This document shows, piece by piece, positions 197-49,100 of a DNA stretch of 64,000 nt (its first letter is position 1; every line of letters starts with the position of its first letter). The notes below the pieces were generated by a model. That model was not told the origin of the DNA. It did not search any database and saw only the letters and a program-made list of their open reading frames with translations. The DNA lies in NCBI GenBank assembly GCA_050084985.1, contig JBITNC010000001.1, positions 4,030,001-4,094,000 on the forward strand, written 5' to 3'. The DNA is from Nageia nagi (Eukaryota; Plantae; Pinophyta). Both the position numbers and the translations under genes were made by a program.

Positions 197-1656
197 TGTA
201 GATTCCTACAAAATAAATTCTTTATTAAAGCCCCGGTATACCTTAATTTCAACCATGGGTTCATTCTTAGATTCTCTGGAGTTTTTTGGAGCGGATAAAA
301 TAGCTCGGGATCAGAGTAAAGTTTTCCGGAATGAAATGGTGACGTGGCGGAGAATAAGATATTCATCTTTCGGCAAGGACCAAGTTCCGGAAAAGACGAA
401 GTAAGCACAAGTGTCTCCGGAAAACAAAGCATTCCTGATATATGAAGATGACATCACGGAAAAGAAGAAGCTCATAATTGCAAAGGAAACCGGAGTCCGG
501 AGGAGATGACGTCTGCAAGGAGTAACTTCGTATCCGGGGTCTTTGAGTAAAGTATTCCGGAGAAATAAGGTGACGTCAGCAGGTAGCGACTTAGTATCCG
601 GAGCCATAAAGGAAAACATTCCGGAGGAAAGAAAGATGACGTCACAGGCGAAACGACGTTCACATTTTTGAATAAGAACGGAGCCCGGAATGGATGACAT
701 CATCAAGGAGTAATTTAGTGTCCGGAGCCAGTGAATAAAGAAGTCCGGAGATTCAAGGCTGACGTCAGGCGAAGGGGAAAGATTAACATTTGGGATTAAG
801 CCCGCGTCCAGAGGAAAATAGGCCGCAATGAAAGATCGAAGAGTCCGAGTTGGAGAATTGAACATTCCGGGAGAGAAGGAAGTCTGCAAAATACCTGAGC
901 GCCATCATCAGGGAACCGAATCGTCGGCGATCTGCCCAATTTTGTAACAGTCGGCCAAGTGTCATATGTAGGTGATATCAGTTCAAGAAGGCCAGAATCT
1001 TGCGGCCGTTTTGTAAACGTTTCTATTCTGTAATCTTGTAACTGTTATTAATACAGTATAAATATATGAAAATAAAGAGAAACTAGGGTCGGAAGCCTAG
1101 TATTGCCCTTTTCATTTGTTCTCGAAGACCTGTAGCTTCAGTCCGGTACTATGAAACCATCTTGACCTTTCTTGTCTAGCACTCGTAATTGTTATTCTTA
1201 ATTTGGTTACATTGTGGCAGCTTAGCTTGTTTCCTGAGTAATAGTTGCGGGTTGCTAGTATAACTGTGTCTGCTACATGGTAGAGTAGAAGCTGGGGAGC
1301 TATTCAGAGAGTGAGAACTTGTTCTGTGGCTGCGACACTAGATTCAGGCCAAGGTTTCGCACACTGCGAAAGCCCGCGCTGAACTAGTGATCTACCCCTT
1401 TGCTTTCTCTCTCGTTACCCTATCCCTTTACTTCCTCTCTCGTTACCCTATCCTTTTACTTCCTTTCTTGTTACCCTATCCTTTTGCTTGAATCTCTCGC
1501 TCCCTACTCTTTTTATCTCTTTCCTGTTACTTTTTCTTTACCCAATGGATAAGGAACCGGCCTTCTCCGGAGATCAGGCTGCGTCCCACAGTCTGTTCGT
1601 GAACTACTTTGGTTAAGATTGTTCCAGGCGCACATATTACACAATCTCAATCAACA
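197..1656 (+). repeat. 5' LTR of Tat element (1460 bp)
   Basis: TGTAGATTCC...TCAACA; matches 7804-9267 apart from a few substitutions and small indels; TATA-like TATAAATA near 1057; ~29-bp pyrimidine-rich tandem (CTCGTTACCCTATCC) at ~1405-1545. Confidence 0.95.
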
Positions 1657-1667
1657 GTATTTCTTTT

Positions 1668-1713
1668 TGGCACGCCCGGTGGGACCCGAAGAAATTTATT
1701 GGCGACTCTGCTG
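1668..1713 (+). promoter_or_regulatory. Primer binding sites: PBS1 TGGCACGCCCGGTGGGAC (1668-1685) and PBS2-like TGGCGACTCTGCTG (1700-1713), both tRNA-Arg type
   Basis: Both begin with TGG (complement of tRNA CCA) and match the two tRNA-Arg PBS types known from Ogre/Tat elements. Confidence 0.8.
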
Positions 1714-1803
1714 AAGCACCATCCATGGTATGTATTAAAGCAAATTATTTGTGAATATCATAGGTGCTTTGAACCTGTCATTTTCTTTTGCAATCTAGAG
1801 TTT

Positions 1804-4800
1804 ATGTGGACAAGATCTAAAACTAGAGCAGCAAAAGAAGAACCGGAGTTTGGGAAGTTAGATACTCCTAGGAGAAAGACCCTGATCAAGTCCAAGTCTC
1901 TGAATAGTATCGACTCCCTAAAATCCTTTATCAAGCCAGAACCATCCAATCTTCATACTAGAGATACCTTCCCTAAAATGGCTAATCCAGCTCAGAATAT
2001 TTATCCGGAATGGGACAATGGGGTACCCATAGCTCTGGCGGTATTACATGATATCCCAGCAAATGTTTTTAAAACCCTTCCGGAGTTTGATGCAACTTCA
2101 GAAAAAACGGCTTATGAGCACTGTGTGGATGTAGCCGGCCTAGCAAAGATTCACAATATTCAGCATGAAGATATTATGGTGAGATTACTGGCTCAGTCTT
2201 TCAAAGGAAAGGTCCTGGATTGGTACAGGGGCCTTTCTAATGGATCCATCAGTACCTGGGCTCAACTGGCAGAGCCTTTTATCCTGGAGTTTAATGAACT
2301 AGGGGATCCCTTTTCCTTGTTAACCCAGTTTACTTCAATCAAAAGGTTTGAACAAGAGAACATCCCAGATTTCAACATTAGATTCCAGAGAACGTGGACA
2401 AGAGTACCCATGCCAGTCAGGCCTCAGCAGTTTCAAGCTTTGATGTATTATCTGAGAGCCTTTCCTCCGGATCTCTCTCTGCAAATCCAAAATTCCGGAG
2501 TGAATACTTTCCCGGAGGTCTATAGACAAGCAGTATATGCTGAATCCTGTCTTATTGCAGTTGGTAAGTTGCCAAGCCGTATGCCTATGCCCTATTTTCC
2601 AATAACTACCCAACAGCAAATGTGGAGACCTCCGGTAATCAGTTCAGTTCCACCTCTGGCCCATTTTCCTGCTCCTGTTCAACCTTGGTCATCAAACTTG
2701 CCAAATCCTAGAGCTCCTTTGTCTTTACCTGCCCCCCTCAGCCCAATGTGAATCAGGGAGTAGCGTCATCATCAGAAATTCAAGAGCTCAGGGATTTGTG
2801 TAGAAATATGGCGAATCAGATCACCATCCTAAGCAGACAGAGCAATGCAAGGAGATATCCTTACCCGGCAGTGGAAAAGGGCCCACATGTAATGATAGAA
2901 AATTCAGATCAAGGTTCATCCTCCGGGTCAGTTGTTGGTTTGTGTTTGGCTTGCAATGACGCGCATGAACAAACAACATGTCCCGTGCATCAGTACCAAG
3001 AGTATTTGTCGGGAAATGGAGGTATCTCGCCGCCCGGAGTGGCAGACAACATAAATCAAAATGCAAACTTGATGAATTTTGCACCGGCAGATATAGGAGT
3101 TTTTGCGGTGGAAACAAGATCGGGGAAGAGGCCCCTGGTTTCCGGTATTCCGGAAAGAAAAGTTGAATCCCAAAGAGATGCCGGACCAGTGCTTTCTAGG
3201 AGGCAAGATGCAGTCCCGGTTCTAAGGATAAGGTCCTGGAAAAGGAAAAGAATGCCGAAAAATTCCCACTTCCGGAGATCAAACCGACCCCAAAAATCAA
3301 TGACCAAAGTATTCGGAAGCTAAGGTTTCCTTCACTCACTAAGCACCAGAGGAAAGATGATACCCTACAGCTTCGGGAAAGTTTCACCGATAGTCTTAGA
3401 AATAAAATCGGAGAACCTCCGGCTATTCCCGAGTTCGATATTGTGGCCGAGTTAAAGAGGACGCCGGCAAGAGTATCTTTGTTTGAGGCTTTAAAAATTC
3501 CTGGGCAGATTGATTTGCTGAAAGCGTCCCTTATAGCTCAGAACGAAGGAATGGAAAAGGTTCTAAATCTGTTTGAGACATCGAAAATTCCGGGGATGGG
3601 AAAAAATAAACCTCCGGCCTTTTACATGACTCTGGAAATTGAAGGATATGTGCTCCATAATTGTTTGGTTGATTCCGGAGCGGCTACTACTGTTATGCCC
3701 AAAGCAGTGTGTGACGTAATGGGATTGCCTATGACACGAACTACTACTGGAGTATTACAGTTGGATTCCACACCTGTTAAGACAGTGGGAGTTATCAAAG
3801 ATATAGTTCTGAAGATGCACAAGTGCCCCTCTGTGGTTATTACTCAAGAAGTTGTTGTGGTTGAGTTACCCCCTCTGTTCGGGTTATGTTTGTCCAGAGA
3901 GTTTACAGCGAAAATAGGAGGTTACCTAGCAATGGATTATACTCATTATCTGATCCCTTGTGGGAATAAGAGGGTTAGGTTAAACAATGAGGAAATTTCC
4001 GAATTTCACGTAGAGAAAAAGGAGGAAGTGTGTGCAATCTTTGGTGAAATAGAGGAATCAGACGAGTTACTGGAAAGGTTGCAAACCGAAGATCCTTATA
4101 GTATGAGTATGCTTAATACCATCAGCGATATGGAATTTGGAAATTATTGCTTGATGGAACCGGAGTCTTTTGTCCCGGAACTCACTAAGGGAAACTTCCG
4201 GAGAAATGAGATCTGGGAGATGTTTTTTGACGGAGCTAGGTCTAAAAATGGATCTGGAGTGGGAATCATTCTGAAGGAACCAAATGGCAAGGTATATAAA
4301 TTCTCTTTCAGGCTTACCTGGTTATGTTCAAATAATGTAACAGAATATGAAGCACTTTGCCTCGGGCTGGAACAAGCCATTAAAATGAAGATCCGGGTTT
4401 GAAGATCAAAGGAGATTCAGAGCTAATAGTAAAGCAGGTGACAGATAAATGTTCAGCTAAGCATCACTATTTGAAATCATACAGAAATAGAGTTTGGGAT
4501 CTGTTGGAACATTTCGAGGCTTTACATATTCAGTCAATCTCAAGGAGGTTCAATCATGAGGCTGATGCTTTAGCACAGATGGGAGCCAGCTTTGATCCCA
4601 CTGATGATTGGTTCAGGGAAAAAGGGGTTCCAACTCATTTTCAGGCCTTCAATTCCGGATAATGATTCCTTCTGGCAAGTGTTCCGGGATGAGGCTCAGA
4701 TTAATCAATTCCTATTACAACAAGCTGTGTGTCACGCGGTAGGGGAAGAAGATTCTGAAATCTTCCGGGGGCAGGATGTAATTCAACTGAATAATAATAA

Positions 4801-7677
4801 AGTTCCCAAAGATTTGATTCCGTTCGAAGCATTGTTTGACAGATGTGACCAGGTAAAAAGAAGAGGTCTAAGTATAAATCCGGATAACTATAGAGAGTGT
4901 GAGGTTTTCCCGGGCAAGTCATTGAAAATCGGTACCTGTAATACCCCGGAACAAACCCACGAGATTGTGCAATTATGCAAGGCATATGTAGACGTCATTG
5001 CTTGGTCTTACGATGATTTGAAGATTTTCGACAAGTCAGTGATGCAGCATACTATCGAATTGATAGAAAACGCCAAACCAGTCAGACAGAAACAGCGGCC
5101 AGTGAACCCTAAAATCGAAGCAGCTATGAAACAAGAAGTTTTGAAATTGTATAAAGCTGGAATAATTTATCCATTAAACACTCCACTTGGGTGGCGAACC
5201 TCGTACCGGTCCGGAAAGAAAATGGCGAGATAAGGCTGTGTGTGGATTTCCGGGGCCTGAATAAAGTATCCTTGAGAGATCATTATCCTTTGCCACCAAT
5301 GGAACAAATACTCAATACCGTGGCGGGTGCTGAGAAATTCTCTTTGATAGATGGTTTCTCCGGGTACAACCAGGTGTGGGTCCGGAACGAAGACCAATTT
5401 AAAACGGCTTTTACAACCAAATGGGGTACATTCGCTTTCCAGAGAATGCCTTTCGGTTTGTCTAATGCAGGAGCTACTTTCCAAAGAGCTATGGATCATG
5501 CATTTGGAGAGTTGGTGAACAAAAGCGTGGTAGTATATCTTGATGATATTACTGTGTTCTCACACAACAAAAACCTTCACGTCCAACACCTGGAACAGGT
5601 TTTCATCAAATGTAGAAGGTATGGCATATCCTTGAATCCTAAGAAATCAATTTTCGCAGTAGATGAAGGGAAGTTATTGGGTCATGTAATTTCAAAGGAA
5701 GGTTGGGCCATTGATCCAGATAGAATAAAAGCAATTAAGAACTTAGTTCTCCCATCCAATAAGAAGTCTCTACAGTCTTTTCTGGGTCAGATTAATTTTG
5801 TCAGAAGATTTGTTCAGGATTTTTCAGGCATTGTCAAACCTATTACTCAGATGCTAAAGAAGGATACACTGTTTGAGTGGACGGAAGAAGGTAAAAAGGC
5901 TTTTCAGGAAATCAAAGAGGTAATTACTGAAGCCCCGGTACTGAGAAATCCGGATTTTAGTAAGAAGTTTATTCTGTATGCATATGGTTCGGATACTAGT
6001 GTCGCTGCTATTCTGACTCAAAAGTATGAAAAGAATGAGGAATATCCCGTAGCGTTCTTCAGCCAAACTATGATAGTTGCGAAGAGAAATATACCTTTCT
6101 CGAAAAAACAAGTCTTGGCCATTGTGAAAGCTCTTAGTAAGTTGAAACATTATGTTGCTCAAAGCAAGATTTTGATTCTAACTATACATCCGGATGTCAG
6201 GTCTTATATTATGCAGGGTGAGTTGGGAGAAGGGGGGACCCGGTTGGATTTCAAAAATCCTCAAATATGATGTAGAAATCCGGCCTACCAAGCTCATAAA
6301 AGGGAGAGCGCTTTGTGAGCAACTTGCAAAATCAACAATACCAGAGGAGGGAACAGTATGCCATATTGAACAAAAGGTACCAGAGGTCGAACCCGGGGTT
6401 ATAACGAATGATTGGGTAGAGCAGTTAAGCAGATACTTCGAGTCCGGAAAGCTTCCTGACAACATGGATGCGTCCCAGAGAAGGCGGTTCAAAATTCATG
6501 CCCAAAATTATACAGAAATAGATCAGGTACTTTACAGAAGAAATCATGATGGTGTTTTGCTGAGATGTGTACCGGCATCGAAGACAGAAGAACTTATTGA
6601 AGAGTTTCATTCCGGGATATCCGGAGGCCATTATTCCGGATATACAATGGTGGGTAAAATTATCCAAGCCGGATATTATTGGCCTACTATGTTTAAAGAG
6701 GCTTTTGCAAAATCCCAGGGTTGTGAAAAATGTCAAAGGTTCGCGGGGAGAAAGAGAAGTGCAGCATTGCCGTTGGAACCGGTTCAGGCGGAGGAACCCT
6801 TTCAGCAATGGGGGTTGGATTTTATTGGAGTAATCAATCCTAATTCTTCAGCCGGGCATAAATTTATTCTCACAGCTACAGATTTCTTCACCAGATGGGC
6901 AGAGGCGGAAGCCGTGAGAGAAGCAAACCAGAAGACCGTGGTAAAATTCATAGAGAAGCTAATCACCAGGTATGGTATCCCTCAAACAATTGTTTCAGAC
7001 AATGGCTTAGCATTTGTAGGAACAGAAGTCACAAATTTCGCTATGAGATATGGTATTTACTGGAAAACTTCCTCGAATTATTACCCTCAGGGTAATGGTT
7101 TGGCCGAATCTACAAATAAGAACTTGATCCGGATTCTTAAAAGAATAATGGAAGACAACCCACGAACTTGGCATGAGAAACTTAATTGGGCATTGTGGGC
7201 AGATAGAATCACTGTGAAGTCATCCATCAAGACCAGCCCTTATACTCTGGTATACGGTAAGAGGGCCATGTTGCCAAGTCATTTCGAGCTTCCGGCCTTG
7301 AAAATTTTACAAGAGTACGGAGGAGATTTCGAACCCATCAAGTCCGTCTGAATGAACTACTGCATTTGGAAGAACTCCGGAATCAGTCGTATCAGAGTTT
7401 ACAGAACAGAAACGAAGTAGTTAAGAGATGGTTCAATAACCGAAAGGCCACTCCAGAAGATTTCAAGGAAGGAGATTTAGTTTTGAAATGGGATGAAGAC
7501 AGAGCCAAGATTGGAAAACATAAAAAGTTTGATTCCTTATGGTCCGGACCTTACATGATATCTAGATGTGCAGGAAAGAATTCTTTCGAAATATCAAAGT
7601 TAAACGGGTGGCGGCTGCCAATCTTGGTCAATGGGCAGCATTTAAAACACTATGAACCCGCATGCGCGGGAGATTGA
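1804..7677 (+). CDS. gag-pol polyprotein of Tat element, split by several apparent frameshifts
   Basis: Gag (VRLLAQSFKGKVLDWY); protease LVDSGA (~3665); aRH WEMFFDGA...NNVTEYEAL...GDSELIV...NHEADALA (~4214-4580); RT (RLCVDFRGLN, RMPFGLSNAGATFQRAM, YLDD); degenerate RH (LYAYGSD); INT HHCC zinc finger, WGLDFIG, VSDNG, YPQGNGLAE, WSGPY. Confidence 0.9.
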
Positions 7678-7803
7678 CTGAAAGAAAAGACATGATTTTG
7701 TATATATGTAAATAGAAAAGACAGGATTTCAATTTTGAATTTGAGGCTGGATTCTAAATTTCTTTTCGACAAAGGCGAAATTTTCCCTCAGAAGTCGCCA
7801 TAA

Positions 7804-9267
7804 TGTAGATTCCTACAAAATAAATTCTTTATTAAAGCCCCGGTATACCTTAATTTCAACCATGGGTTCATTCTTAGATTCTCTGGAGTTTTTTGGAGCG
7901 GATAAAATAGCTCGGGATCAGAGTAAAGTTTTCCGGAATGAAATGGTGACGTGGCGGAGAATAAGATATTCATCTTTCGGCAAGGACCAAGTTCCGGAAA
8001 AGACGAAGTAAGCACAAGTGTCTCCGGAAAACAAAGCATTCCTGATATATGAAGATGACATCACGGAAAAGAAGAAGCTCATAATTGCAAAGGAAACCGG
8101 AGTCCGGAGGAGATGACGTCTGCAAGGAGTAACTTCGTATCCGGGGTCTTTGAGTAAAGTATTCCGGAGAAATAAGAAGGTGACGTCAGCAGGTAGCGAC
8201 TTAGTATCCGGAGCCATAAAGGAAAACATTCCGGAGGAAAGAAAGATGATGTCACAGGCGAAACGACGTTCACATTTTTGAATAAGAACCGGAGCCGGAA
8301 TGGATGACATCATCAAGGAGTAATTTAGTGTCCGGAGCCAGTGAATAAAGAAGTCCGGAGTTTCAAGGCTGACGTCAGGCGAAGGGGAAAGATTAACATT
8401 TGGGATTAAGACCGCGTCCAGAGGAAAATAGGCCGCAATGAAAGATCGAAGAGTCCGAGTTGGAGAATTGAACATTCCGGGAGAGAAGGAAGTCTGCAAA
8501 ATACCTGAGCGCCATCATCAGGGAACCGAATCGTCGGCGATCTGCCCAATTTTGTAACAGTCGGCCAAGTGTCATATGTAGGTGATATCAGTTCAAGAAG
8601 GCCAGAATCTTGCGGCCGTTTTGTAAACGTTTCTATTCTGTAATCTTGTAACTGTTATTAATACAGTATAAATATATGAAAATAAAGAGAAACTAGGGTC
8701 GGAAGCCTAGTATTGCCCTTTTCATTTGTTCTCGAAGACCTGTAGCTTCAGTCCTGGTACTATGAAACCATCTTGACCTTTCTTGTCTAGCACTCGTAAT
8801 TGTTATTCTTAATTTGGTTACATTGTGGCAGCTTAGCTTGTTTCCTGAGTAATAGTTGCGGGTTGCTAGTATAACTGTGTCTGCTACATGGTAGAGTAGA
8901 AGCTGGGGAGCTATTCAGAGAGTGAGAACTTGTTCTGTGGCTGCGACACTAGATTCAGGCCAAGGTTTCGCACACTGCGAAAGCCCGCGCTGAACTAGTG
9001 ATCTACCCCTTTGCTTTCTCTCTCGTTACCCTATCCCTTTACTTCCTCTCTCGTTACCCTATCCTTTTACTTCCTTTCTTGTTACCCTATCCTTTTGCTT
9101 GAATCTCTCGCTCCCTACTCTTTTTATCTCTTTCCTGTTACTTTTTCTTTACCCAATGGATAAGGAACCGGCCTTCTCCGGAGATCAGGCTGCGTCCCAC
9201 AGTCTGTTCATGAACTACTTTGGTTAAGATTGTTCCAGGCGCACATATTACACAATCTCAATCAACA
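7804..9267 (+). repeat. 3' LTR of Tat element (1464 bp)
   Basis: Direct repeat of 197-1656, followed by TSD GTACC. Confidence 0.95.
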
Positions 9268-9272
9268 GTACC

Positions 9273-10766
9273 AAAGGCACTTCATCAAAAAAGAAGTTCA
9301 ATATTGACTTGGCAGCTTCAATTAGAGCATTACATGAAGACCCCAACTAGAGCAAATTCATCTTCAAGATTAATAATACATTGTTAGTCACCAAAGTCTT
9401 CTTGAACAAGGATCTAGAGAAATCTCAAGTGGAGGCTCATACCCAAAGATGGAGATTGGCAATATCGAGACCATAGGGACGGAACGGATCAAAGAGCTAA
9501 GAAGGATTACAGAAAAGCTAGAGGAGACCCAGGAGGAGCATAACCCTAAAGAAGATAACATGCTCCAAGGCCATACCATCCCCATGATAGGGTGACCATT
9601 CAAGGACGAGAAGGGACCATCTATCGAGAAGCATCAGATGAGCTCTAGTTGGATGGAGGAGTTGCATTTGGGATGCAACATTTTCAATTTATTTTATTTT
9701 GCATAATTACATTTTAATTTGGACATCAAAACATTATTCATTTTGAAATAGCCTCGTGATGGATGAAGATTTGCTACCACAAGTGTTGGATCTAATCTTT
9801 TATTGCCATGTGGCATGTTTTTATTGGACCATTGTTAATTAGAGTTAATTTAGATGAATTTCATTTAAATTTGCATTAGGGTTAGGGTTTTCTTCCAAAA
9901 ACTATAAATACCCCTAGAGGGTTCATTTTGAAAGGAGGATGATCATTTGCCCAAGAGCGGAAAGTATTGCAATTTTGTTTTAGAATTTGGCGACTCTTGT
10001 AAGTGAATGTTGTGCATGATTTAATGAAATTAGGACTTGTTTCACTTAATGGGATTGTAGGCTCGAGTAATTTTACTTGGTGTTTGCTTATGATTAGTGT
10101 ATGACTTGTGTGCATTTCTCGCAAGCGTATGCTTTTTAGAAGGCTGAATGATTATCTTATGAAGTTGTATGACTACCATTTGATGAACATCGTCTACTCT
10201 TTCACATGTAATGGGTGTATGCTGATGAATTCCTTTCTATGTCATTTGGCTTGAGAGGTTGCTCACACTATTGTCATTGACAACATTGCTATAGGCTCCT
10301 TCTACACACAATTTGGACTTAGTCATCTGTGGTAGGATTGGATACGTGGGTATACGTTTCATAATTAACCCGGGAAGGAAATGACTTAGCCACTACCCCA
10401 TGGGTGAACTTGCTCTTGAACGAACTCTTATTGCGTGCCATCATCCCCATTTTACTCTTTCTTCTTCCTTTACCTTGTTATTTATTTATTTATTTTTTAT
10501 GATCAAAAGTCTATCCTTCTAGTCGGTGCAAGACAGCTCCAGTTTCCACAGTATAACGTGGTTAATAGTTGTTGTCTCTCCTTCCACTGAGCATTCCAAG
10601 TATAGCTACTATCACCCTCGTAGAAGATGTCTCACAATACTAGGAACCTTGGGGTAACCATTCCTTATAAGCGGATGTTAGTAACACAACCTCAATCACA
10701 TGTTGGATGCCCTTTCTTGTTATCACCTAGGTGGTCTTCATAAGGGGAAGGAAAAACATCCTAACA
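9273..10766 (+). mobile_element. 3' part of an old giant LTR related to 17785-23548; continues in 1-196 and was interrupted by the Tat element
   Basis: TTAGGGTTAGGG...CTATAAATACCCC...TCATTT (9876-9930), CTTGGGGTAACCATTCC and a terminal hairpin ending CCTAACA (10766) all match the minus-strand element; a degenerate reading frame at ~9335-9470 resembles the C-terminus of that element's ORF. Confidence 0.6.
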
Positions 10767-16400: not shown

Positions 16401-19400
16401 AAAAAGTTAAATAAACATAATGGCATAAAATCTAGCAAGGGCAACAACGGCACAAGAAATGTTCTACAAAGGGAAGATGAGGTTGAAACCGAATCAATAT
16501 AACAACCCCATAATATTAAAACATGCTTTATTGGAATATAGGTCCTCTCATTCATCCGTGCACAAGGGTTAGGAAAGATAAAAACTTCAAGCATTCATTA
16601 CAATCATAATTTGTAGAAAAATAAAATGAGAATGATATTTAATTAGTTTCATGCCAAAGGAGAGAGCTCTCCTTTCTTTTATGTGCTTATATATATTTAT
16701 GCAATCATGTTAGCCAAAGTAGGTGGCTTTTGATCTTTCGTTTCTTTCATACAAATATTAGTCATGTGACTCTTCATCTTATATGAAATGCAGGAGAACT
16801 TCTGCCACTTCTGATACTATCCTCCCCCATTGTCCATTGGATGTTATTGTCCGCAAAATAAAAAACAATATAATCAGTTAAATAATAATAATGATCAATA
16901 ACTATAATTATGGCCCGCATGTTTTAATATTGGGTGGTGACCATGCACTCATTAAATATTGGAGACTTAATGTCTTAAGGAATATGACAAGCCTCAAAAT
17001 AGTCCCACCAATTTTTTATTGGTTGGAGTGACATCACTCCAAAAGCTGGCAGTTTTATTGAATAATGGGGTGAGGCTTTCCAAAGAATATAGGCTAATAA
17101 TATTTGACAATATCTGGGAAGAGCCCCGTGTAATATGTGTAGCAGCCTTTGGTTAAGATAGATGACAAGTAAAACTTTGGTCAATCTAGACCATTGAAAT
17201 TCTTTAAGGCTGACAAACACTCTAGAGTCTACAAGGATATAAGCTTCTACAAAGCTTAGCTCACACTTAATTTGGTGCCATGTATGCCAAGTGATGTAAT
17301 CCCATTAGAACTTAAACGGGTATACTGCACATTGCAAGTTGCACGCCTGATTTGGGACCGTTTAATCTTGAACAAATATGGGAACAGCCTTCAAATGATT
17401 TTCTGTTAGTTCACGAGCTTGCCATGCATCTTTCATGATGTCAATGACATTAAGGTAACTAGCGGACTTCATGTTTATAAGTGACAAGATTATGATCTCA
17501 TCTTGGTTGGTTGCGACTGTTGAAAAGCTTTTCAATGACACTACTCGGACGTCATATTGGTAATATGGGCAACAATGCACTTAACGTTTCAGCTTGTAGT
17601 TGGAAACATTCGGTAGACTAGGGGCCACAACATCAAACAAAATTCCACCACCCTTCATAGCTTATGAAACTGGAACTTGGCATATTGCATTCTATACACT
17701 TTGCATGTGTACAACCTGATTATGTCCTATGTGTTCATGTGGACCAAATACCAATAGCTGCAAGGGGAAGACCTGAATGGGAGTTGTTGGGTGGTTTTTC
17801 TTTTCTACCCTAAAAGGTTGAGAAAAACACCAACACCTCAGGTGGAAGGGCGTTACCCCTTCCCGCTATGGGGATTGGTTACCCCAAAGGTCACTCCTCT
17901 TTATGTTGCGAGAGTAGAACTCATGGAGCGGTTGAGATGTTTGAAGTTGCCACCAACATGAATATCATGTGTGGATCAAGGGACTTAGATTTATACCTAT
18001 GGTTCAACAATGCTGTTCCAAAAAAATGCTAAAAGAAATAAATGGTTGCGAAAGCCGTGCAAAGAAAATGTAAATTAAAATGAAAAAGTGGCGGAGAGAT
18101 AGTGGGTACAAGGATGTGACTAATATGCATGCGTACTCATGGGCTTGGATAAGGCCTTATAAGTTGATTTATTTGGGCTCGGTGTAGGTTCCACATACCC
18201 TAGATCCGTCCCACTAGCCAACAACACAAATGGTCTAGTGGAAAGAGCGTGAAGTTGTGGCAAAGATGGTGAAGGATGGGATGGAGGTAATCTTTGGTGA
18301 TTGAGGTGAAGTTCCTACAATGAGCGACATGAACAAAACATTCCAAGATATTCAAGCCTTAATTGCAGATGATAAAGTATTAACAATATGTCATTCAAGC
18401 ACTTCGATAGATATGCAAGCACTCTTTCGTCCACCTTGCTCAAGGTTTACGAAATACATCAAGTGACATGAAACAACACAAAGCGGTAATAGAATCAACT
18501 AGATAGCACTATCATCATTCATTTGTATTCATCATCACAACATAAGGGCATATGAAAATAGTCAAATACAAATACACAAGATCAACAATTTTAAAAAAAG
18601 TTTTTATGTATTAGCATGCAAAGTTCTTTCCAAAATTGTCAAATATCTAACCCCTTACAAATGAGCCCATAAGGGGTATAAATAGTTTTTTTGGCAAACC
18701 TAAGTGTTTCCCTAACCCTAATTGCGTGTATCGAGAAAATAAAACTTGGTCCAATAACAAGATGGTGTTACAAGATCCCTTCCAAACTTGTGGGAGCAAA
18801 TCCTCATCCATCATAAGTTTGGGAATAAAACAATAAAAAAATATTTTGTGAAAATTAATGACTATGATGGTGGCCCCAAGGCCGCAACTCTATCTTCAAA
18901 GTCCTCGTCCAAGAACTTGGATGTGAACTCCAACCCGTGTATCATCTTCGAGGTCCCGACAATGTTCCTTGCTATGCAACGCTCAACCTTGTTGATCATC
19001 CTTTGCATCTCAATCTTCCAAGCATGGGCCCTCAACATGTGTTTAAGATGGCTTTCAGTCTGGTATGTGTTGATATCCTCGGTCTTGAATAGGCTTTGAA
19101 GTAGATGTCTCACTTCCATGACTACCAGGTTCGTCTCTTTGATGTTGGTGTCCTCTTCAAGAAACCTAACCTTAAAATCCATTTGTTCCAAGCTTGAGTT
19201 GGCTTTCTCATTAATCTTTGTGACCTCCTTACTCACTTCTTGAAAGCGAGAAGCCATCTGCTGCACCACCCCTAAATAAAACCAATAATCGTCACAAAAA
19301 TTGGCATCCTTTAGTCTCTGGTCCTGAGTCATTTGGAATCTCTCAACGATGGGCCTCCAAGACTCTAATCTCCTAAGGAAACTGACCCCATTGGCCACAA

Positions 19401-22400
19401 TATCTTTTAACTTCTGCTTCTCAATTGAGATCATTTGCAAGGCGTCTATGAACTGTGCCACCATTGCGAATATATCCTCAGTCATCTCTTGCTTCACAAC
19501 AACCCATCCCCTCCTTTAAAGGTTTCAGCTTCTTGAGCTCCTCAGGGTTTACCTTTGCAGACTCTATCTCTCTAGTCAATCTCCTTTGGGCAACTAATTC
19601 CTTCTTGAGCTTTTGATCTCTTTCTCCTTTTGCAGCCCGTCCTTGGCAATTGTGTTTTTTTGTGGCTATGATCGCATGCTTCCTACCAGCTATGCCAATG
19701 GGATCTGTATTGATAATCTGATTTATCTGTTTGAGGTCCCTAGGTCGTTGTGGGTTGTTCTTATCCATGTACACTATCTTGATATGAACTATGTTATCAA
19801 CCAGGTGTACATATGTTTGACTTTGCTTTGGATGAGTGGAATTTTCTCCAACTTGGTCATTGACCTCATCAATTCCAAACTACTCCCCAATGTCCATATT
19901 GAAGATGTTAAGGCACTTGTCCATATCTACACCCCACTCATCATTTGGTGACGGCTGGTGGGTCTCGACGATTGGCTCTTGATTGATGGTGACATTCTTC
20001 TTGGGCCTTTTCGAAGACCTTGCCTCTTCTTCTACATTCTCCTCGGGTACCGCTAATGATCGAGATTGAGATGTTCTTTTTAGTTGGACTCTTCTAGGTA
20101 TTGATTCAGAGGTTGGGCTCTTCCCCTTCCTTTGAGATGTAGAAGGCTTTGAAGAGAAAGGCTTCCGAACTACCTCCAAAATTCTCAAAGATTCCTCCTC
20201 TTGAGCATCTAGGATTTGAATATGTTGACTAACATTCACCTCATGTTTGCCTTCTTCCCTTTGTTCTTCTCCTTGGCTATCATCTGGTTTGTACAAAGGG
20301 CTAGATGATGAGGAACCAGATGGTGGGATGATTGTAGATGGGCGTTGAGTCGGCCCTCTAGGTGGTCTTTGTGAAGGTGATGGATCTTTCTCTTTGTTTC
20401 TAACACACCTCGTGACCTTGTTGGTTGCCACATTCTCCAGCTCTCTCATATCATGTTCATCTATGGTCACTCTCACTTGCTCAACCATTGTCTCAATTGG
20501 ATTCTTGCCATGCATTGAAGCATATTGGCCAACATGTTCTTCATTCATCGAGGGGAATTGTGTAACTCTGGATGTAGATTCTTGTGGTCTCTTCCCTCTT
20601 GGCTGTGACAACCTCTTGTCAATAGTGGCCTCGACATTCTATTGTTGCTTCTGAGCCTCCTCTTGCATCCTAGCACAAATTTTTCTCATCTCCACCTCAC
20701 GTTCTTGAATAGCTCCTCATCTCCAAGTGACTTATGCTCATAAGCCCTTTTTTGTTCCTTTGTGTAGAAGCCATGAATCTTATGCTCTGAGTCATAGTGG
20801 TCTGTGGCGGTCATCTTCTTGAAGTGGAATCTATGCAACTCCTCTTTCATTGAATCCACGTATGCCCAAGTTTTGCATTGATACTCTCCCACTATGATCA
20901 ACAAATTTGAGGTGGCCAATTTCTTGTGCCAAATGTGCTCATGTAAGTAGGCCAACTGCCTCATCATCTTCATCAAGAGCAATTTGTTGCTAACATATCT
21001 GGGTAGTTGATATGGCTCCATGATTGACCCATAATTCCTGATATAGGAATAGTGTTGGTGATGGATGAAGAAGTCTCCATGCTTCCTTAATGCATCCTGA
21101 GCTGAGTTTGAGATCCTGGTCACTGTAATTTCTCCCTTCAACTCTTTGTAGATCTCATACTCCCATCCATCATTTCTCATGAAGAAACTATCTCACCTTC
21201 TTTCAACCTTCCACTTGGGGTAGCATTTCCAAATGGCATATGTTCCTTTATCGATCCATGTTACCTCCCCTTGAGCCGTGGGTTTATACTTACCATGAAG
21301 CAACAAGTACACCAAGTATGAATTGAGGTAGAATTTGCGTAAAGTGCCCATAGATGACAATTGTTCTGCAAGCGTATCACTCAATACATTACTCCATTTA
21401 ATATTCCTTCCCCTCATCATCTCGACGATGAAGCCAAAGAACTCCTTCGTGAACTTAGAGCCATCTTCTTTTCCGAGGATTCTTGACAACATCAAGATCA
21501 TCAACTCCATTGTAGGGTAGAAGTTGTTGCGAGGAGCATTGATGAGAGCATTTCCTTTGAGGCCATGATGATGATTGCTTTGTTGGTCCCATGGTAACAA
21601 GCAAGTGACTCTACTTCACTGTACACGAAACTCCCTTCCGTCATCCATTGGAATGCCTTTTTGATGGCCTCGGGGCTGAAGTCAATGATGACATGCCCTT
21701 TGATGTCCCGAAGCACCCTCTCACCCATCTTCCAATGTTGGCTCACTTCTATGCACAATTCTGGGAAAGGGGCTATGAATAGGACGAACGTGGCGGTGGA
21801 GAGACCTAAGAATAACACAACATTTTGTTTCAATATGCTGATCTCCACATTGGGTATCTTCTCCCTCATTTGCATGGAATCTAACTTCTGCCAATCTGTA
21901 TCTCTGATAGTGGCAAATCCATTCTTTGAAAATCTGGCTCCTTATGGTAGGGGCTCTCGCCTCTCACATATCAAGAGAGGACAGTCTTGTCTCATTGTCT
22001 CCAAATCCCTTGCAATTTCTCTAGCCATAATACTCTTCGAACTAGTCATCTTGGCCAAACGAGTGATGAGTGTCTCCGAAAGTGATGCATGAGTCCTTCA
22101 AGGGTGAAACTACTGCAACGTTGCTCTTGTCTTGCCTCCAAACCTCTTGCGTAAGTCTAGAATGGTGATGGAATGAACTCGAAACTTTAAAAATGTCTTC
22201 CTTCTACAATTCTGATGCAAAAGATGAAGACGAGAGTGATTTGAATTTGATAAAAATGAAGCCTCAAGCTTGTATTTATAGGCAAATTAGGTCATCTTGA
22301 AACCTTAGTTGACCATGCATGTTGAACAATTTGGCCATGTGTGCCAGCTTGGAATTTAAAGTATTGCCACCAGAAACTGGACATGAGGGTGAGCAAGAGA

Positions 22401-25400
22401 CTTCAGGGTGGGTGCATGACCAAAAAAGACAAGATTGTCTTTCTAAATCATGCGCTCAACTTAGGAGTGCATGCTCTTTGGTCGTTGGTCATCTTGGCTC
22501 TCCCACTCGTTTGTCTTGACCTTCGTACTCATGCTAAGACCTCAACTTGTCCAAATTTGCCTTTTCTAGTGTTCAGACTCGTCAAATTTCATCTTCGTTT
22601 TCAACCAGGACACCTCCAAGTTAGGTGCATGTTTTAAAAAGAAAGATTTTGTCTTTTCAAAACGTGTGCCCAACTCTCCAATCATGCCAAATTTGAGCTC
22701 ATGTCTTAGAAAGACAAGATTTTGTCTTTTTGAGGCATGGGTTGGGTTGCACTTGCCCAGTTTGACTTGTTTCTGGCCTTTTGCAATCAGGACTAGTTGA
22801 TTTTCACCATTTTTGCCAACATGATGTCTCCTTGGGTTAGGCGCATGCTTTAGGAAGTTAAGATTCTATCTTTTTCAACCATGCGCCTGCGCCTCTGGTC
22901 ATGTTTGAGCTGGATACTGGCTTCAGGCTCCATGCCTTAGCCAAATTTCATTGTGTGATCACACTGGATGCCTCTTTGTCTTAAGCGTATGCCCCCAAAA
23001 GACAAGATTTTGTCTGTTTGAGGTGTGCGCTCACCTTCTGGCTGTTTCAACTCACTTCTCCATCTTCGAATCTTTCCCGGGCAGCCTTTGGAACTGGGCG
23101 CATGCCCCCAAAAGACAAGATTTTGTCTTCCATTCTGACCTGGACACCTCCTAGACCCAAGGGCACATCCCAAAAAGATAAAATTTTGATTTTTTGAGGC
23201 ATGCATTGGGCCTAGGAGTGGCTCAGTTTGAAAGACAAAAACTTGTCTTTTTGAGGCATGTGTTGGGCCTAGGAGTGGCACAGTTTCACCTGACTTGACT
23301 CAGACTTGACTTGGGTTCCCCTTGTTTGCGTAAACTCGACTTATTCATTTTATAAAGGATTTTGACCTTTGTTCTAACATGGCTAAGACTAGTCGAGTGA
23401 TAACACTTAGGCTTGGGATGATAGGCGTGATACCCAAATAGGTGGAGCTTTTGAACACTTAAGACAAGGATGTGATGTTGGACAGATCTGAGTTGTGGTG
23501 GGTCTCCAAAATCTTGCGATTTTGGGGTGTGTTGTGTAAGTCACAACAGGATTAGATGTGATGTATTAACAAAGGTTTTAGCTGCATACGAAATGGTGCC
23601 ATTTGGTGTGACTTGTCTCGGACATCTTTGAATTTCTTTTGACTTGATCATGATGCATAATTTGGCCTTAGCGTTTTAGAGGGGCATGCCCTTCTACATG
23701 GTACACAGACTACAAACACATTGTGTAATAGAGCCTCCTTACTGCAAATTCAAAGACTGCATCCAAAAATAATAAACAAATGAAAATATCTTACAAAGTC
23801 ATTAAATTTTGAATTAAAACGCACAAATAAACCCAAATATGTCAGTCCAATAAACTTTAAATGTCTTAAAACTCTAGTAAAAAGTTATCAGTAACAGGAT
23901 TCATAGGAAGCTTATAAAGATAAATCTCCCTACTCTCCTTTTGAGAACATGTTTAGCTTTTTGAAAAATTCCAAACGAGGTGTTTATAGAAACTTGCAAA
24001 ATCAGCGATGGAGATCATGAACAAGAATGTAAATAGTTGAATCCATGAAGCTGTTTTATGCAAAGATGTTGGCCTTACTAACAACTATTGTCAAGATGAA
24101 GATGACAATAAAGATATCTAAAAATTTGCTCAATAATGTTGTCGGGGACATTTTTAGGATCAGAACTGCAACAAAGGGAAAAATGGTTTTTGCTTTTTAG
24201 AAACCCTGAAATCTACATCATGTACTTTTATTTAAGTACCAAATTCCAACGAAAATGAGGTAAAAAGTTTAGCTTCTGGTTTATTTCATAGTGATTTTGA
24301 TTTAACATGGGAATCATGTTCGCATGGTTGCAGTGCTTTTTTGATCTTATATCTGAGGTTGGCCTCAAAATTGGATGTCCAAGTGCAGAGTGGTGACCAA
24401 ACATACTGTCAAAAGTGTTCTCAGATGATCACAATATGGGTGATAGAAGCAATACCCTTATGTGCCAAAGTGATATAAGTTGGGATATGCAGTGTTCCAG
24501 GAAGATGATTTGTTTAAGCATATAATAATAAAATATTGCATATTGTTATTAAAGTTCTTTCTATATTGTACCAACTTTAATATTTGTTTATTGGATGTGT
24601 AGTCAAGGAAACATCAGTAGCCATTATTGTATTAACTGATAATGTACTACACTTCTCTTCCTGGGAAGCAGCAGTTCGAGATATTCTTCTCAATATTTCT
24701 TATATATGTGGTAAATTAAAGATTGTTCTATAGGTCATTATAGCTAACAAGCATGTCTATAGGCATATGAGTGCCCCCACATAAGATGAAGGGAAGTTTT
24801 TATTTAGCTCATATTATTAGTTCAAATTTTTACCTTTATGAGTTTCAACACTTGGAGAAAAGTTGTAGGAAACAACGCCTTTGCCACTACTTCTAAGATC
24901 AACATACACAAGATATTTTTTTATTGGAACTTCTCTCTGATGAATCTAGTCGATTATTCTTTTTAACTATTTGGGTGAAGACGCAACATCATCAAGACTT
25001 GAAATCTTTTTACAAAGTTCTTGAAATGGCCCAGAGTACTTGAACATCCAGCACTTTAGTTGCTTTGGGAGCAATGTAATTCAAACTGATGGTGCTATTT
25101 TGAGTATGTTTGTTTGACATGCTATTTCTTACAATGCTCTTACCTTCAGCACAAGGTATTGGTCTATGGTGGATCTGTTGGGACCAATTTTGTGTGTCTA
25201 TTAGCAATTTGATTATGCTACACGACCATATAGACAGGTAACATCATTTAATAAGATGTCTATCTCGCATGGAAATGACAAAAGAGCTAAAGTTGGTGAT
25301 TAGCTATAAAGAGATGTGTAGGCATTAAATAATTGTGTTTTGAAAGTAATTGGTAATGCACAATTCTACATAAACTGTGCATGCGCAAGGGACAGCATGT

Positions 25401-39644: not shown

Positions 39645-42600
39645 TGCACCTTCATCTTCAACTCCATGAACTAACAAATGCTTAGAAGTGGTGATGAATC
39701 CTACCCGAACATGTGTCTTAGGAAAACAAGCCCATATGCTTCTCTAAAGCTAATCTCTAAATGATGTGTTATCTGATGATGTGGCCATCCAATGGTTAAC
39801 CGTAGCTTTGTGGGATTATCCCACATGCCAGGCTCTAATGCACCCTTGTCCATATAAGGTGTTCTCATCATCTAAAGCTTTGCCAATCATGGTTTTGAGC
39901 TACTGGCGTGTTCTACCCTACAAAAACTTCAGAGTTATGTAGGATGATTTGGGAACAATCCAGAGATGGGTGATGATTGGGATGTCTAAATGTTGCACCT
40001 TCATCTTCAACTGCACGTACTAATAAATGCTTAGAAGTGGTGACGAATCATACTCGAACATATGCCCTAGGAAAACAATCCCATCTACTTCTCTAAAGTT
40101 AATCTCTAAATGATGTGTTATTTGATGTTGTGACCATCCAACGGTTAGCCATAGGCCTTCAGGGATAATCCCACATGTGCTAGGCTCTAATGCACCCTTG
40201 TCCATATAAGGTGTTCCCACCACCTAATGCTTTGCCAATCATGGTTTTGAGTTATTGACATGTTCTCCTCTTCAAAAACTCCAAAGTTAAGCAAGATGAT
40301 GTGGGATCAATCTAGAGATGGGTGATCGGTTGGGATGTCTCGATGCAACTCCACGTACTAACAAATGTTTAGAAGTGGTGATGAACCCTACTTGGGCATG
40401 TGCCCTAAGGAAGCAACCCCATCTACTTCTCTAAAGTTAATCTCTAAATGATGTGTTATTTGATGATGTGGGCATCCAACGGTTAGCCATAGGCCTTGTA
40501 GGATTATCCCACACGCGTTAGGCTCTAATGCACCCTTGTCCATATAAGGTGTTCCCACCTCCTAAAGCTTTACCAATTGTAGTTTTGAGCTACCGATGCG
40601 TTCTCCCTTGCAAAAACTTCAGAGTTAAGCAGGATGATGTGAGAGCAATCTAGAGATGGGTGATCGACTAGGATGTCCCAATGTTGCACCTTCATCTTCA
40701 ACTCCACGTACTAACAAATGCTTAGAAGTGGTGATGAACCTTAATCGGACACATGTCCTCCCAAGAAAGCAACCCCATCTACTTCTCTAATGTTAACTCT
40801 AAATGATGTGTTATTCGATGTCATGGCCATCCAACGGTTAGCCGTAGGATTATCCTACATTCGCTAGGCTCTAATGCACCCTTGTCCATATAAGGTGTTC
40901 CCTCCACCTAAAGCTTTGCCAATCGTAATTTTGAGCTATTGACGCATTCTCCCACACAAAAATTCTAGAGTTAAGCAAGATGATGTGGGAGCAATCCAGA
41001 GATGGATGATTGGTTGGGATATCCTAGTGCTACATCTTCATCTTCAACTCCATGTATTAACAAATGCTTAAAAGTGGTGGCGAACCTTACTCGAACACAT
41101 GCCTCAGGAAAGTAGCCCCATCTACTTCTCTAAAATTAATCTCTAAATGATGTGTTATCTGATGATGTGGCCATCCAACGGTTGGTCGTAGGCCTTGTGG
41201 GATTATCCCACATGCGCTAGGGTCTAATGCACCCTTGTCCATATAAGGTGTTCCCACCACTTAAAGCTTTGCCAATCGTGGTTTTGAGCTACTGATGCAT
41301 TCTCCCTTGCAAAAACTCCATAGTTAAGTAGGATGTTGTGGGAGCAATATAGAGATGGGTGATTGATTAGGATGTCCCAATTTTGCACCTTCATCTTCAA
41401 CTCCATGTACTAACAATTGCTTAGAAGTGATGACAAACCCTACTCGGACATGTGCCTACAAAAGCAACCCCATCTATTTTTCTAAAGTTAATCTCTAAAT
41501 GATGTGTTATTTGATGATGTGGCCATCCAATGGTTAGCCGTAGACTTTGTGGGATTATCCTAGATGCGCTAGGCTCTAATGCACCCTTGTCCATATAAGG
41601 TTTTTCCACCACATAAAGCTTTGCCAATCGTGTTTTGGGCTACTAGCACGTTCTCCCCTACACAAATTCCAAATTTAAGTAGGATGATGTGAGAGCAATC
41701 CAGAGATGGGTGATCGGCTAGGATATATCGATGCTACACCTTCATCCTCAACTCTATGTACTAACAAATGCTTAGAAGTGATAAACCCTATCCAGACATG
41801 CGCCTTAGGAAAGCAGCCCCATCTACTTCTCTAAAGTTAATCTCTAAATGATGTGTTATTTGATGTCGTGGCCATCCAACGATTAGTTGTAGGTCTTGTG
41901 GGATTATCACACATGTGCTAGGGTCTAATGCACCCTTGTCCATATAAGGGGTGTTGCCAATCATGGTTTTGAGCTACTAGCGCGTTCTCCCCTTCAGAAA
42001 CTCCAAAGTTAAGTAGGATGATGTGGGAGCAATCTAAAGACGGAGGATTGACTAGGATGTCTCGATGCTGCACTTTCATATTCAACTTCACATACTAACA
42101 AATGCTTAGAAGTGGTGACGAACCCTACTCGAACATGTGCCCTAGGAAAGCAACCCATCAATTTCTCTAAAGTTAATCTCTAAATGATGTGTTATTTGAT
42201 GATGTGGCCATCCAATGGTTAGTATTAGGCCTTGTGGGATTATCTTACATGTGCTAGGCTCTAATTCACCCTTGTCCATATAAGGTGTTCCCACCACCTA
42301 AAACTTTGCCAATCATGGTTTTGAGCTATTGACACATTCTCACCTGCAAAAACTCCAAAGTTAAGCATGATGATGTGGAAGCAATCCAAAGATGGGTGAT
42401 CGACTGGGATGTCTCGATACTACACCTTCATCTTCAACTCCACATACTAACAAATGCTTAGAAGTGGTGACAAACCCTATTTGGACACATGCCCTAGGAA
42501 AGCAACCCCATCTACTTCTCTAAAGTTAATCTCTAAATGATGTGTTATTTGATGATTTGTCCATCCAACGGTTAGCCGTAAGCCTTGTGGGATTATTCCA

Positions 42601-42869
42601 CATGTGTTAGGCTATAATGCACCCTTGTCTATATAAGATGTTCCTACCACCTAGAGTTTTGTCAATGAGCTACTGGTGCGTTCTCCCTTACAAAAACTCT
42701 AGAGTTAAGTAGGATGATGTGAGAGCAATTCAGAAATGGGTGACTAGCTGGGATGTCCCAATGTTGCACGTTCATCTTCAACTCCACGTACTAACAAATG
42801 CTTAGAAGTGGTGACGAACCCTACCCGAACAAATGCCCCAAGAAAGTAGTCACATCTACTTCTCTAAAG
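39645..42869 (+). repeat. Tandem array, ~9 units of ~334-353 bp, each with a 5S-rRNA-derived internal promoter segment (Cassandra-LTR-like)
   Basis: Anchor GCTTAGAAGTG (with single-base variants) near 39680, 40029, 40367, 40720, 41066, 41419, 41770, 42104, 42456, 42800; each unit has AACTCC..AGTTAAGC...GAGCAATC...GATGGGTGA...GGGATGTCC...TGTTGCACC. Confidence 0.9.
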
Positions 42870-46165: not shown

Positions 46166-49100
46166 TGTTGAAAACTTAGCACATATCCTGAGGCAATTCA
46201 CTTATCTTTTGAGTTCAATTATCAGTTGGTACCTTGCATATCGGCTAAACAACTAGCCAACCAACCCCCAAATGCCAACTAGTCCTTAACCAACTGGTTA
46301 GACCTGTCCAACCGATATGCACCCTACTAGTTAGGCTATATTTGTAGTTCCTTGTAACTTCCAAGTCTTGAGGCATTTTTAGCTTTCTTGTGAAATTTTT
46401 ATTTTTTCTTCTAGCTCACACTGGAGTATACAACATGTGTAATTGTTCTTAGCATAAGTTATTAGGTTAGAATACTAGTAACTTAGTCTAGTTTACTTCT
46501 TACTATGTGTGTGTTACTATAGTTTATATTTTCCTACAACTCTCATCATTGAAGAGTTAACGAAGCTTCATTGCTAAATTTCATACATTGTAATTTGATC
46601 TTCTACATTAATTCAACTGTTCCAATTCAGTTTCACTTTATTGTTATTGTATCTCAACTCTAAGTTTGTTTATTTGAATTCATCATTTGGTATCAGAGCT
46701 TTGTTGGTTCTTAGTTGGGTTTGAGAAAGCTCATGGATTCTTGTAATTGTAAAGGTTTCTTGTAGAGTCTTGGTTTCTTTTTTTGCAGGTATAATGGCTA
46801 GCAACACAAGCTCATCAATTCCTATTCCAAAGTTTAATGGTAGTGATTATGGGTAATAGAACATTAAGATACAAACTTTGCTCATTGAAAAATATTTGTG
46901 GGACATTGTTGAATAAGGCTACACAAAGCCAACAAATTGGAGCACTCTTTTAGCAGATGAAAAGAAGGCTAAGAAGGAATGTATGAGAAAGAACTCTCTT
47001 TCCTTGTCTCACCTCCAAGCAACCATTGAAAAGAGTATTTTTCCTAGAATTATAGGTTGTAAGACAACCAAAGATGCTTGGAAAGTGTTGATAGAAGGCT
47101 TCTAAGGGAGAAACCAAGTTAAACAAGTGAATTTGCAAACTTTAAGAATAGGATTTGAGACTCTTAAGATGAAGGAAACCGAGGAAGCTTCAGATTACTA
47201 TGTTAGAGTGAAGGAGATTGTAAACAAGATGTTAACTCTTGGAGAGACCTTGGAAAAGGGAGTAGTGATTAAAAAAATTCTGAGATCTCTCACCAAGAAG
47301 TGGAATCACATTGATGTAATCTTGATGAAAACTAAATATCTCTCTCAAATGGAGATTGATACTCTCATTGGATCTCTTATGTCTCATGAAGAGATGATAG
47401 ATGATGAGCTAGTTCAGTATAGTAAAAAGGAGAAAGCCTTTGTTGCAAAAGAATGTGATTCAAGCTCAAATGGACATGGAAGATGAAGAGTTAGAAGCCA
47501 ACAAAGAGGGATAGGCAAAGGTAGAGGAGGAGGAGGCTCTTCACACACAAGAGGAAGAGGTAGAGACAATAGTGATAAGAGGAATGCTCAATGCTTTTGC
47601 TGCAATAAATATGGACATTATGAGAGGGAGTGTAGAGCAAAACAAGAAATCAATGATGAAGGAAGGGCAACAAATTATGGGGAGGAAGATGAGTATGATG
47701 AAACTCTCTTTCTTTCCATGGAAGAGATAGCCAATGTGGCTAAAACAAAATGTGAAGAAACTTGGTTGCTGGACATTGGTTTCTCAAACCATATAACCAA
47801 AAAGGAGGAGCTACTCTCCTCCATTGATCATTCCTATAGGTCAAAGATTAAGCTTGGTAATAATTCTGCAATAGATGTGGTTGGTAAAGGCATGCTTGTG
47901 GTGCCTACCAAGCATGGAATGAAGAAGGTGAACAATATATATCACACTTTGAATATGGCTCATAGTTTTCTTAGTGTTGGGAAGATTATGGAGCAAAACT
48001 ACAAGTTGGTTTTTGAAGATGGATAATGTGATATTTTTGACAAGAATAATGGGAACAAGCATGTTACTACTATTCACATGAATGCAAATTGATTATTTTT
48101 ACTAAAGCTTGGAGATAAAGGAGATAATATTATTGAAAATGACATGTATTGGTTGTGTCATCTTAGATTTGGCCACTTGAATTTTAATAACTTGAAGCTA
48201 TCTCATGATCTTGTTCATGTTTTGCCTCTTATTGAAGATCGAAAATCTGTTTATGAAGCTTATGTTTTGGGTAAGCAAGCAAGGCATAAATTTGATCATG
48301 GGAAAGCATGGAGGGCCTCATTCCCACTATAGTTGGTGCATACTAATTTATGTGGACCAATACAATCCAAAAGTATTGGTATGAATTCCTATTTCCTCAC
48401 TTTTATTGATGATTTTAGTCGAATGTGTTGAGTTTATTTTCTAAAACATAAAGATGAGGAATTTAGGTGTTTTAAAGAATTCAAGAAGTTGCTAAAAAAT
48501 GAGAGCGAATATAAAATAAAATCTATAAGAAGTGATAGAGGAGGAGGAGAGTATGCTTCTATTGAATCTTAAAGGAGAGAGGAAAAATGAAGTTCCTCAC
48601 CCAGGATGCAAGAGCCTAAAGAATATCACAAGAGCATAAAATATTACTCATAATGAATAAAATTATGGATTAATTATACATAAGGTACACCTTGCTTAAA
48701 TAGCAAGTGAAATGAATAATAGCCATATGATCAAAACAATATTGATCATTAAATTAAAACAACTCGATAATTATGACAACTAAGCATACCTACTAGTGAA
48801 CTTAAGATAATGTAAACCTAGATACCTAACTAGGTAATAAAGAAAATAATACTCTAACATCTCCCCTTAAGTGATACTAAGTAGGAGTGTAGATAGCTAA
48901 GAAAAGATGAGTCTTGAAAACTAGGCTTGATAAGGTACTCATGTACAAAGTGGCTAACACACAAACATGAAAAAACTCTCTTCTATAGATGATGAAAAAC
49001 CACATGGGAAAAAAACATCTTCTAGAAGGGGAAACAAAAATAAAGAAAGGTGGAGAGGAAGGTTTCCTCATCAACACCCCAAGGATAACTTCTATCACCT

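Follow-up and report, generated by a model that had tools for sequence, protein, structure and literature searches.

A 5.8-kb inserted unit in Nageia nagi, likely a solo long terminal repeat, with a broken element-encoded gene between its 5' terminus and its promoter block

Can a plant retrotransposon keep a gene inside its long terminal repeat (LTR), and what would such a gene do for the element? The question is raised by a unit of 5,764 bp on the minus strand at 17785..23548 of a 64,000-nucleotide stretch of Nageia nagi DNA (contig JBITNC010000001.1, positions 4,030,001 to 4,094,000; hereafter the window). We identified the unit as a repeated element that inserted once at this site; it probably represents a solo LTR from a family of conifer retrotransposons. 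Its long open reading frame (ORF) is, judged from the conservation of its relatives, a gene once under selection and encoded by the element, and its predicted fold suggests a likely role in escape from host silencing.

Boundaries and insertion of the unit

The initial annotation had proposed short inverted termini and an imperfect target-site duplication (TSD), and these were recovered exactly, with TGTTG at 17785, CAACA at 23548, and the copies GGAGT (17780..17784) and GGATT (23549..23553) outside them, the right copy differing by one change from the left. Contigs from 4 of 7 public runs were mapped over 17300-24000. Contigs from 3 of these 4 runs (X1, X2, and X3, from two studies) carry an empty-site joint, 17783->23553, with a single target-site copy and 5,769 bases skipped, corresponding to the unit plus one target-site copy. 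Contig cover is unbroken over the unit (lowest bins 33-175) compared with 0-8 in the flanks, contig depth being no measure of copy number and never used as one. From the empty-site joint and the drop in cover outside, the unit is a repeated element that entered in a single event and duplicated 5 bp of its target.

No LTR-scale direct repeats were found within the unit and no second full copy in the window; TG...CA ends and a TSD in the 4-6-bp range thus surround a single unit, as in a solo LTR. The two ends share 5 bp in inverted orientation and otherwise no common motif. The earlier claim that the primer-binding site (PBS), polypurine tract (PPT), gag, and pol are missing also held, with none of ten PBS-type motifs present at either end and no Pfam match to the unit's pieces; likewise, no DDE domain was matched and no transposase ORF was found in the unit. 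Taken together, the ends, the 5-bp duplication, an outward TATA block, and a hairpin at the 3' end are what a solo LTR with its U3-R-U5 order on the minus strand would be expected to show.

The accessory gene

The ORF had been described as a long frame from 22049 to 18862. Its span of approximately 1,063 codons (18862..22049, minus strand) was borne out, but it is not open: we identified 3 frameshifts (near 21570, 20690, and 19500) and 4 in-frame stops (21944, 21195, 20641, and 19882). The gene of the window copy is dead, and the idea of a working self-contained cassette at this site must be dropped. The encoded product comprises a globular N-terminal domain, a charged low-complexity middle, and a helical C-terminal part.

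A core piece of the ORF matches 110 proteins at E<=0.001; 20 were looked up by name, and those with an organism given came from Taxus chinensis and Cryptomeria, in line with a conifer host. A word-seeded protein search with the window's core piece returned no longer forms, and alignment gave four intact distant homologues of 945-1,171 aa, the first 430-490 residues of which are spanned by the family profile. No relatives were found in the viral and prokaryote collections. In addition, the Cryptomeria protein XP_057824563.1 (P0107), annotated as an alpha-1,6-mannosyltransferase isoform, has a stretch of the ORF family at its start (residues 1-77), perhaps through exonisation of an element or through an error in the gene model.

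Relatives of the unit were drawn from 8 loci (L001-L008) on short metagenome contigs, retained from 283 pattern matches of one scan. In 12 of 24 comparisons against these loci, the synonymous rate (dS) was computable and the ratio of nonsynonymous to synonymous substitution rates (dN/dS), a check proposed in the initial annotation, was 0.06-0.30, a sign of purifying selection; in the remaining 12, synonymous sites were saturated and protein identity was 20-70%. Low dN/dS and protein identity kept despite saturation therefore indicate that the gene was long functional for the element.

Predicted fold of the N-terminal domain

The conserved N-terminal domain (20689..22049, minus strand) is predicted to adopt a fold resembling VANC21 and the plant mobile domain (PMD). 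For both models of the domain, VANC21 (PDB 9LNK) was the top structural match, with 5-9% identity in the structural alignment. Foldseek searches against the PDB and viral models, re-inspected matches included, gave no match. The similarity to PMD or transposase_28 that had been suggested was not upheld by profile searches: PF10536 and PF04195 were unmatched, as were Athila ORF-1 (PF03078) and the DUF1985/DUF287 hidden Markov models, in the 4 window pieces, the 110 homologues, and the 4 full-length homologues. A weak embedding lead to PMD was found in Atlas (0.79), and an Atlas search with P0035 gave no usable match. Two further leads were set aside: C-terminal Pfam matches below threshold (CHDCT2 and others), which look like coiled-coil noise and include nothing above the cut-off, and the single match of a sequence search against the PDB, which we regard as chance and in which VANC21 did not appear.

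By sequence, the protein stands outside VANC and PMD, yet it may act like VANC. The predicted VANC21-like core makes it likely that the gene helped the element escape host silencing, a structural lead from two predicted models that both rank VANC21 first.

Organization of the unit

Read on the minus strand, the unit begins with a conserved 5' terminus (23497..23548) holding the TGTTG start and a small inverted repeat. Its profile, made from four ends that are themselves counted among the matches, matches the window, L001, L002, L005, and L007 (twice), with a diverged copy in L004. There follows an array of spaced palindromes (22410..23265) with the core AAAGACAA-N4-TTGTCTTT, often flanked by CATG boxes. 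The array that had been proposed here is well above chance, with 7 copies at <=3/16 mismatches, whereas 200 shuffled sequences gave 0.025 on average and never more than 1. The same array is common to the window, L001, L002, and an ORF-less copy in L007, and variant cores occur in L003, L005, and the second L007 copy; the core is thus subfamily-dependent. We regard the palindromes as candidate binding sites for the ORF product.

Two TATA blocks lie on either side of the ORF. A first TATA, expected at about 22278, was located at 22280 on the minus strand, in a block (22250..22282) kept in L001, L004, and the ORF-less copy; it is likely the ORF's own promoter. The second block (18620..18830, minus strand) is the most conserved in relatives and contains a CCAAT-like box, the predicted TATA at 18684, and then CATTT. 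This is likely the LTR core promoter. For 6 of 9 3' ends, a pattern search located it at a distance of 865-1030 nt; of the 3 ends missed, 1 is interrupted by an insertion and 2 have the block by alignment or by eye. The poly(A) signals claimed at 18690-18600 could not be confirmed, as no hexamer occurs there and the sole AATAAA/ATTAAA 3' of the last ORF codons is at 18173. The remaining R/U5-like region (17785..18620, minus strand) has conserved hairpins followed by CAACA, with the deepest cover at 17830-17875. A terminal hairpin in U5 was also supported, the 3'-terminal 121 nt folding with z -2.86, equalled in 2 of 200 shuffles. A bacterial promoter scan was at chance level and is irrelevant here.

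The same arrangement in relatives

L001 and L002 match the 5' half of the window unit, with the terminus, the palindrome array, and then the ORF, and in L003, L005, L007, L008, and another subfamily represented in L002/L007 the ORF is succeeded by the TATA block and the same 3' terminus. As the initial annotation had laid it out, the ORF is bordered by a conserved terminus on its 5' side and a conserved TATA/U5-like end on its 3' side, and this holds for several diverged subfamilies. L002 and L007, which share one record id, can be fitted together as two parts of a single ORF-bearing copy that has CTGAC at either end; this inferred join would give a second single unit with a TSD. An ORF between two shorter direct repeats was seen in no relative and not in the window unit; in the window and close relatives, it sits inside a TSD-bounded unit without flanking direct repeats, which is not the setting of an internal-region gene.

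ORF-less family members (L007 13764-16347, L005 1-1687, and L007 up to 3028, all minus strand) are inserted in or beside ORF-bearing members of other subfamilies. One in L007, of 2.58 kb, is complete at its two ends and retains the array and the two TATA blocks, and its empty site is found in L002; the similar short copy in L005 has an empty site in L006. In one ORF-less copy, the two TATA blocks stand approximately 420 nt apart, and because the ORF's own TATA is retained, this copy is a derivative. The ORF-bearing L002 copy lies 32 bp beyond another member's 3' end, and the family may prefer inserting into its own kind. Two loci were handled with restrictions: L003, whose contig ends carry 100% identical repeats in inverted orientation, is a possible assembly or amplification chimera; its 3' end was counted and its orientation was not used. 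L004 is a possible chimera of the same kind, with an inverted 5'-end fragment fused to mid-ORF, and its end was excluded from the count of ends below.

Elsewhere in the window, a diverged relative from this family is represented by its 3' portion at 9272-10766 (plus strand), with a TATA block near 9900, a 3' terminus at 10766, and no PBS after it.

Solo LTR or another kind of element

The reading we prefer, with confidence about evenly balanced, is that of a solo LTR whose U3 region carries a gene of VANC21-like fold, the product of which binds the palindrome array and keeps the element transcribed against silencing. A full element would have been inserted by the LTR integrase, and recombination between two 5.8-kb LTRs would have removed the PBS, gag-pol, and PPT. 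The first TATA would drive the ORF and the second the genomic RNA, and the ORF protein is predicted to bind the array and counter host silencing.

Several results weigh against this reading. Across the 8 loci and the window, we counted 15 family ends with flanks (6 5' and 9 3', from 12 units, 3 with both ends and 9 with one), and a PPT, PBS, shared flank, linked gag-pol, or paired copy was found at 0 of 15. Unlike these ends, both intact elements of the window display a PBS; two TGG triplets near family 3' ends were rejected as PBS. If solo and intact copies stood at 2.8 to 1, the ratio given genome-wide for Cupressus in a preprint (bioRxiv 10.64898/2026.07.23.736688), finding 0 of 15 internal ends would have a chance of 0.024; the chance rises to 0.09 at a ratio of 5 and to 0.26 at 10. 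At least 12 contigs extend at least 60 letters beyond the 3' end at depth 3-6, near single-copy, and no PBS-like loose end past the unit's 3' end appeared in the best 24 of 162 contigs, a selection favouring long unique contigs. L006, the most divergent subfamily examined, has no clear palindrome array upstream of the ORF. Moreover, a likeness in fold says nothing on function, and MAIN/MAIL1, with a related PMD fold, act in silencing (PMC5418596, PMC13547354). Two possibilities follow: a strong bias of the family towards solo copies, as is plausible when the repeats are 6 kb long, or a complete lack of pairing.

If never paired, the unit could be the whole element, an LTR-like module moved as DNA by an integrase-type enzyme in trans, with the ORF-less 1.8-2.6-kb copies as deletion derivatives. 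We consider this rather unlikely, although all 15 ends are external, the near single-copy contigs past the 3' end agree with it, the ORF-less copies are clean insertions in other family members, one of them retaining both TATA blocks, and DNA transposons are known to carry VANC genes (PMC5735166). On the other side, the terminal inverted repeat is just 5 bp and the ends lack a common motif, a transposase is found in none of the loci, and the outward conserved TATA block and U5-like hairpin end have no obvious DNA-transposon role. The sample is also 12 units on short metagenome contigs, and the flank-crossing contigs are the longest ones, with a bias towards unique flanks. Frequent recombination is also to be expected for LTRs of such great length. 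The broader proposal that self-standing LTR-only elements are abundant in conifers, as unpaired U3-R-U5-like modules with integrase-type ends and 5-bp TSDs, without gag-pol but with an anti-silencing gene of VANC fold, a palindromic array, and ORF-less derivatives, we regard as speculative and unlikely.

It is similarly doubtful, a shade more so, that the unit is a solo LTR whose U3 gene had another function, such as integration targeting, chromatin scaffolding, or particle assembly via the helical C-terminal part. The silencing role of MAIN/MAIL1 and the L006 subfamily would suit such a gene, but next to the gene stand a likely promoter of its own and closely packed motifs with subfamily-specific cores, which recall the VANC system. 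Least probable, and by our estimate very improbable, is that the ORF was an internal extra ORF of an Ogre/Tat/Athila-type element and that deletions fused parts of two shorter LTRs into a remnant. Extra ORFs of the PMD, Transposase_28, and Athila ORF-1 types are common in internal regions (PMC6317226), a 2.6-kb ORF-less version with both ends exists, and for the pine family PtPiedmont a length of 7.3 kb is described, with LTRs of 1 kb and an interior that has no assignment (PMC3762812). However, the same arrangement recurs across subfamilies with saturated synonymous sites and was therefore propagated rather than formed once, no PBS or PPT remnants lie beside the ORF, and an ORF-less copy retains the ORF's own TATA.

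Other elements in the window

A young intact Ty3/gypsy element lies at 197-9267 (plus strand), in or beside the diverged family member at 9272-10766. It has 1.46-kb LTRs with 4 mismatches in 1,459, the TSD GTACC on both sides, a PBS-like TGG beginning 11 nt past the LTR end, and no purine tract before the 3' LTR; we take it to be Tat-like from its PBS and reverse transcriptase motifs. Both of its LTRs contain a 197-codon stop-free frame over a degenerate tandem repeat (311-904 and 7918-8514, minus strand), which may be chance. An older copia-type element (46166-54960, plus strand) has 0.52-kb LTRs that are 85% identical, a tRNA-Met-type PBS, and an internal duplicated stretch (48577-48860 / 51744-52028). 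At 39657-42869, a 352-bp unit is repeated 9.3 times in tandem.

Comparison with known systems

Ginger-type DNA transposons combine long terminal inverted repeats with a DDE integrase-like transposase, unlike the present unit, with 5 bp inverted at its ends and no DDE match. Closer are the Ty3/gypsy lineages Ogre (PMD, PF10536), Retand (Transposase_28, PF04195), and Athila (PF03078), which, like the unit, are large plant retroelements with an accessory gene that is conserved, and to which the weak embedding lead to PMD also points. LTRs of up to approximately 5 kb are known in these lineages (PMC6317226), and the extra ORFs described in plants are located either upstream of gag, after the 5' LTR, or downstream of pol, before the 3' LTR (PMC6317226, PMC7264820, PMC3485330). 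The unit differs in that its ORF lies between a 5' terminus and a TATA/U5-like end, with no adjoining PBS or PPT and no Pfam match. No published plant gene inside an LTR was found in the literature searched, most subscription journals lying outside the search.

A retroviral precedent for a U3-encoded gene is sag of mouse mammary tumour virus (MMTV). As with sag, a U3 gene would occupy both LTRs and persist in solo LTRs; the ORF here is approximately 3 times longer, belongs to a plant, and encodes an unrelated protein, and no paired LTR was found for the unit. If the LTR reading is true, a plant retrotransposon keeps a counter-silencing gene in the repeat that survives solo-LTR formation, and the host's main deletion route leaves the gene, its promoter, and its target sites in many copies. 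Standard pipelines seek paired LTRs or known domains, and such units are probably unannotated or miscounted.

The closest functional parallel is VANC of the VANDAL Mutator-like transposons. The N-terminal fold is predicted to be alike, both proteins combine a conserved domain with a variable region, and in both systems the non-coding DNA of the element holds arrays of motifs that vary from one subfamily to another. In contrast, sequence similarity to VANC is undetectable and DUF1985/DUF287 are missing, and the unit, with TG...CA ends, a 5-bp TSD, and no transposase, is not a VANDAL Mutator-like element. VANC is described as dicot-specific (PMC13547354), whereas the unit comes from a gymnosperm; a VANC-like fold here, if true, would place the fold in mobile DNA far beyond dicot Mutator elements. 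MAIN/MAIL1 are reported as structural homologues of VANC (PMC13547354) and likely belong to the same fold family, but they are host genes that promote silencing, and a gymnosperm VANC-like fold would bear on the origin of VANC, whether in MAIN-like genes of the host or in older genes of retrotransposons. The motifs also differ in form, being same-direction 8-9-mers for VANC and palindromes in the unit, and the subfamily specificity of these palindromes makes co-evolution of protein and motif directly testable.
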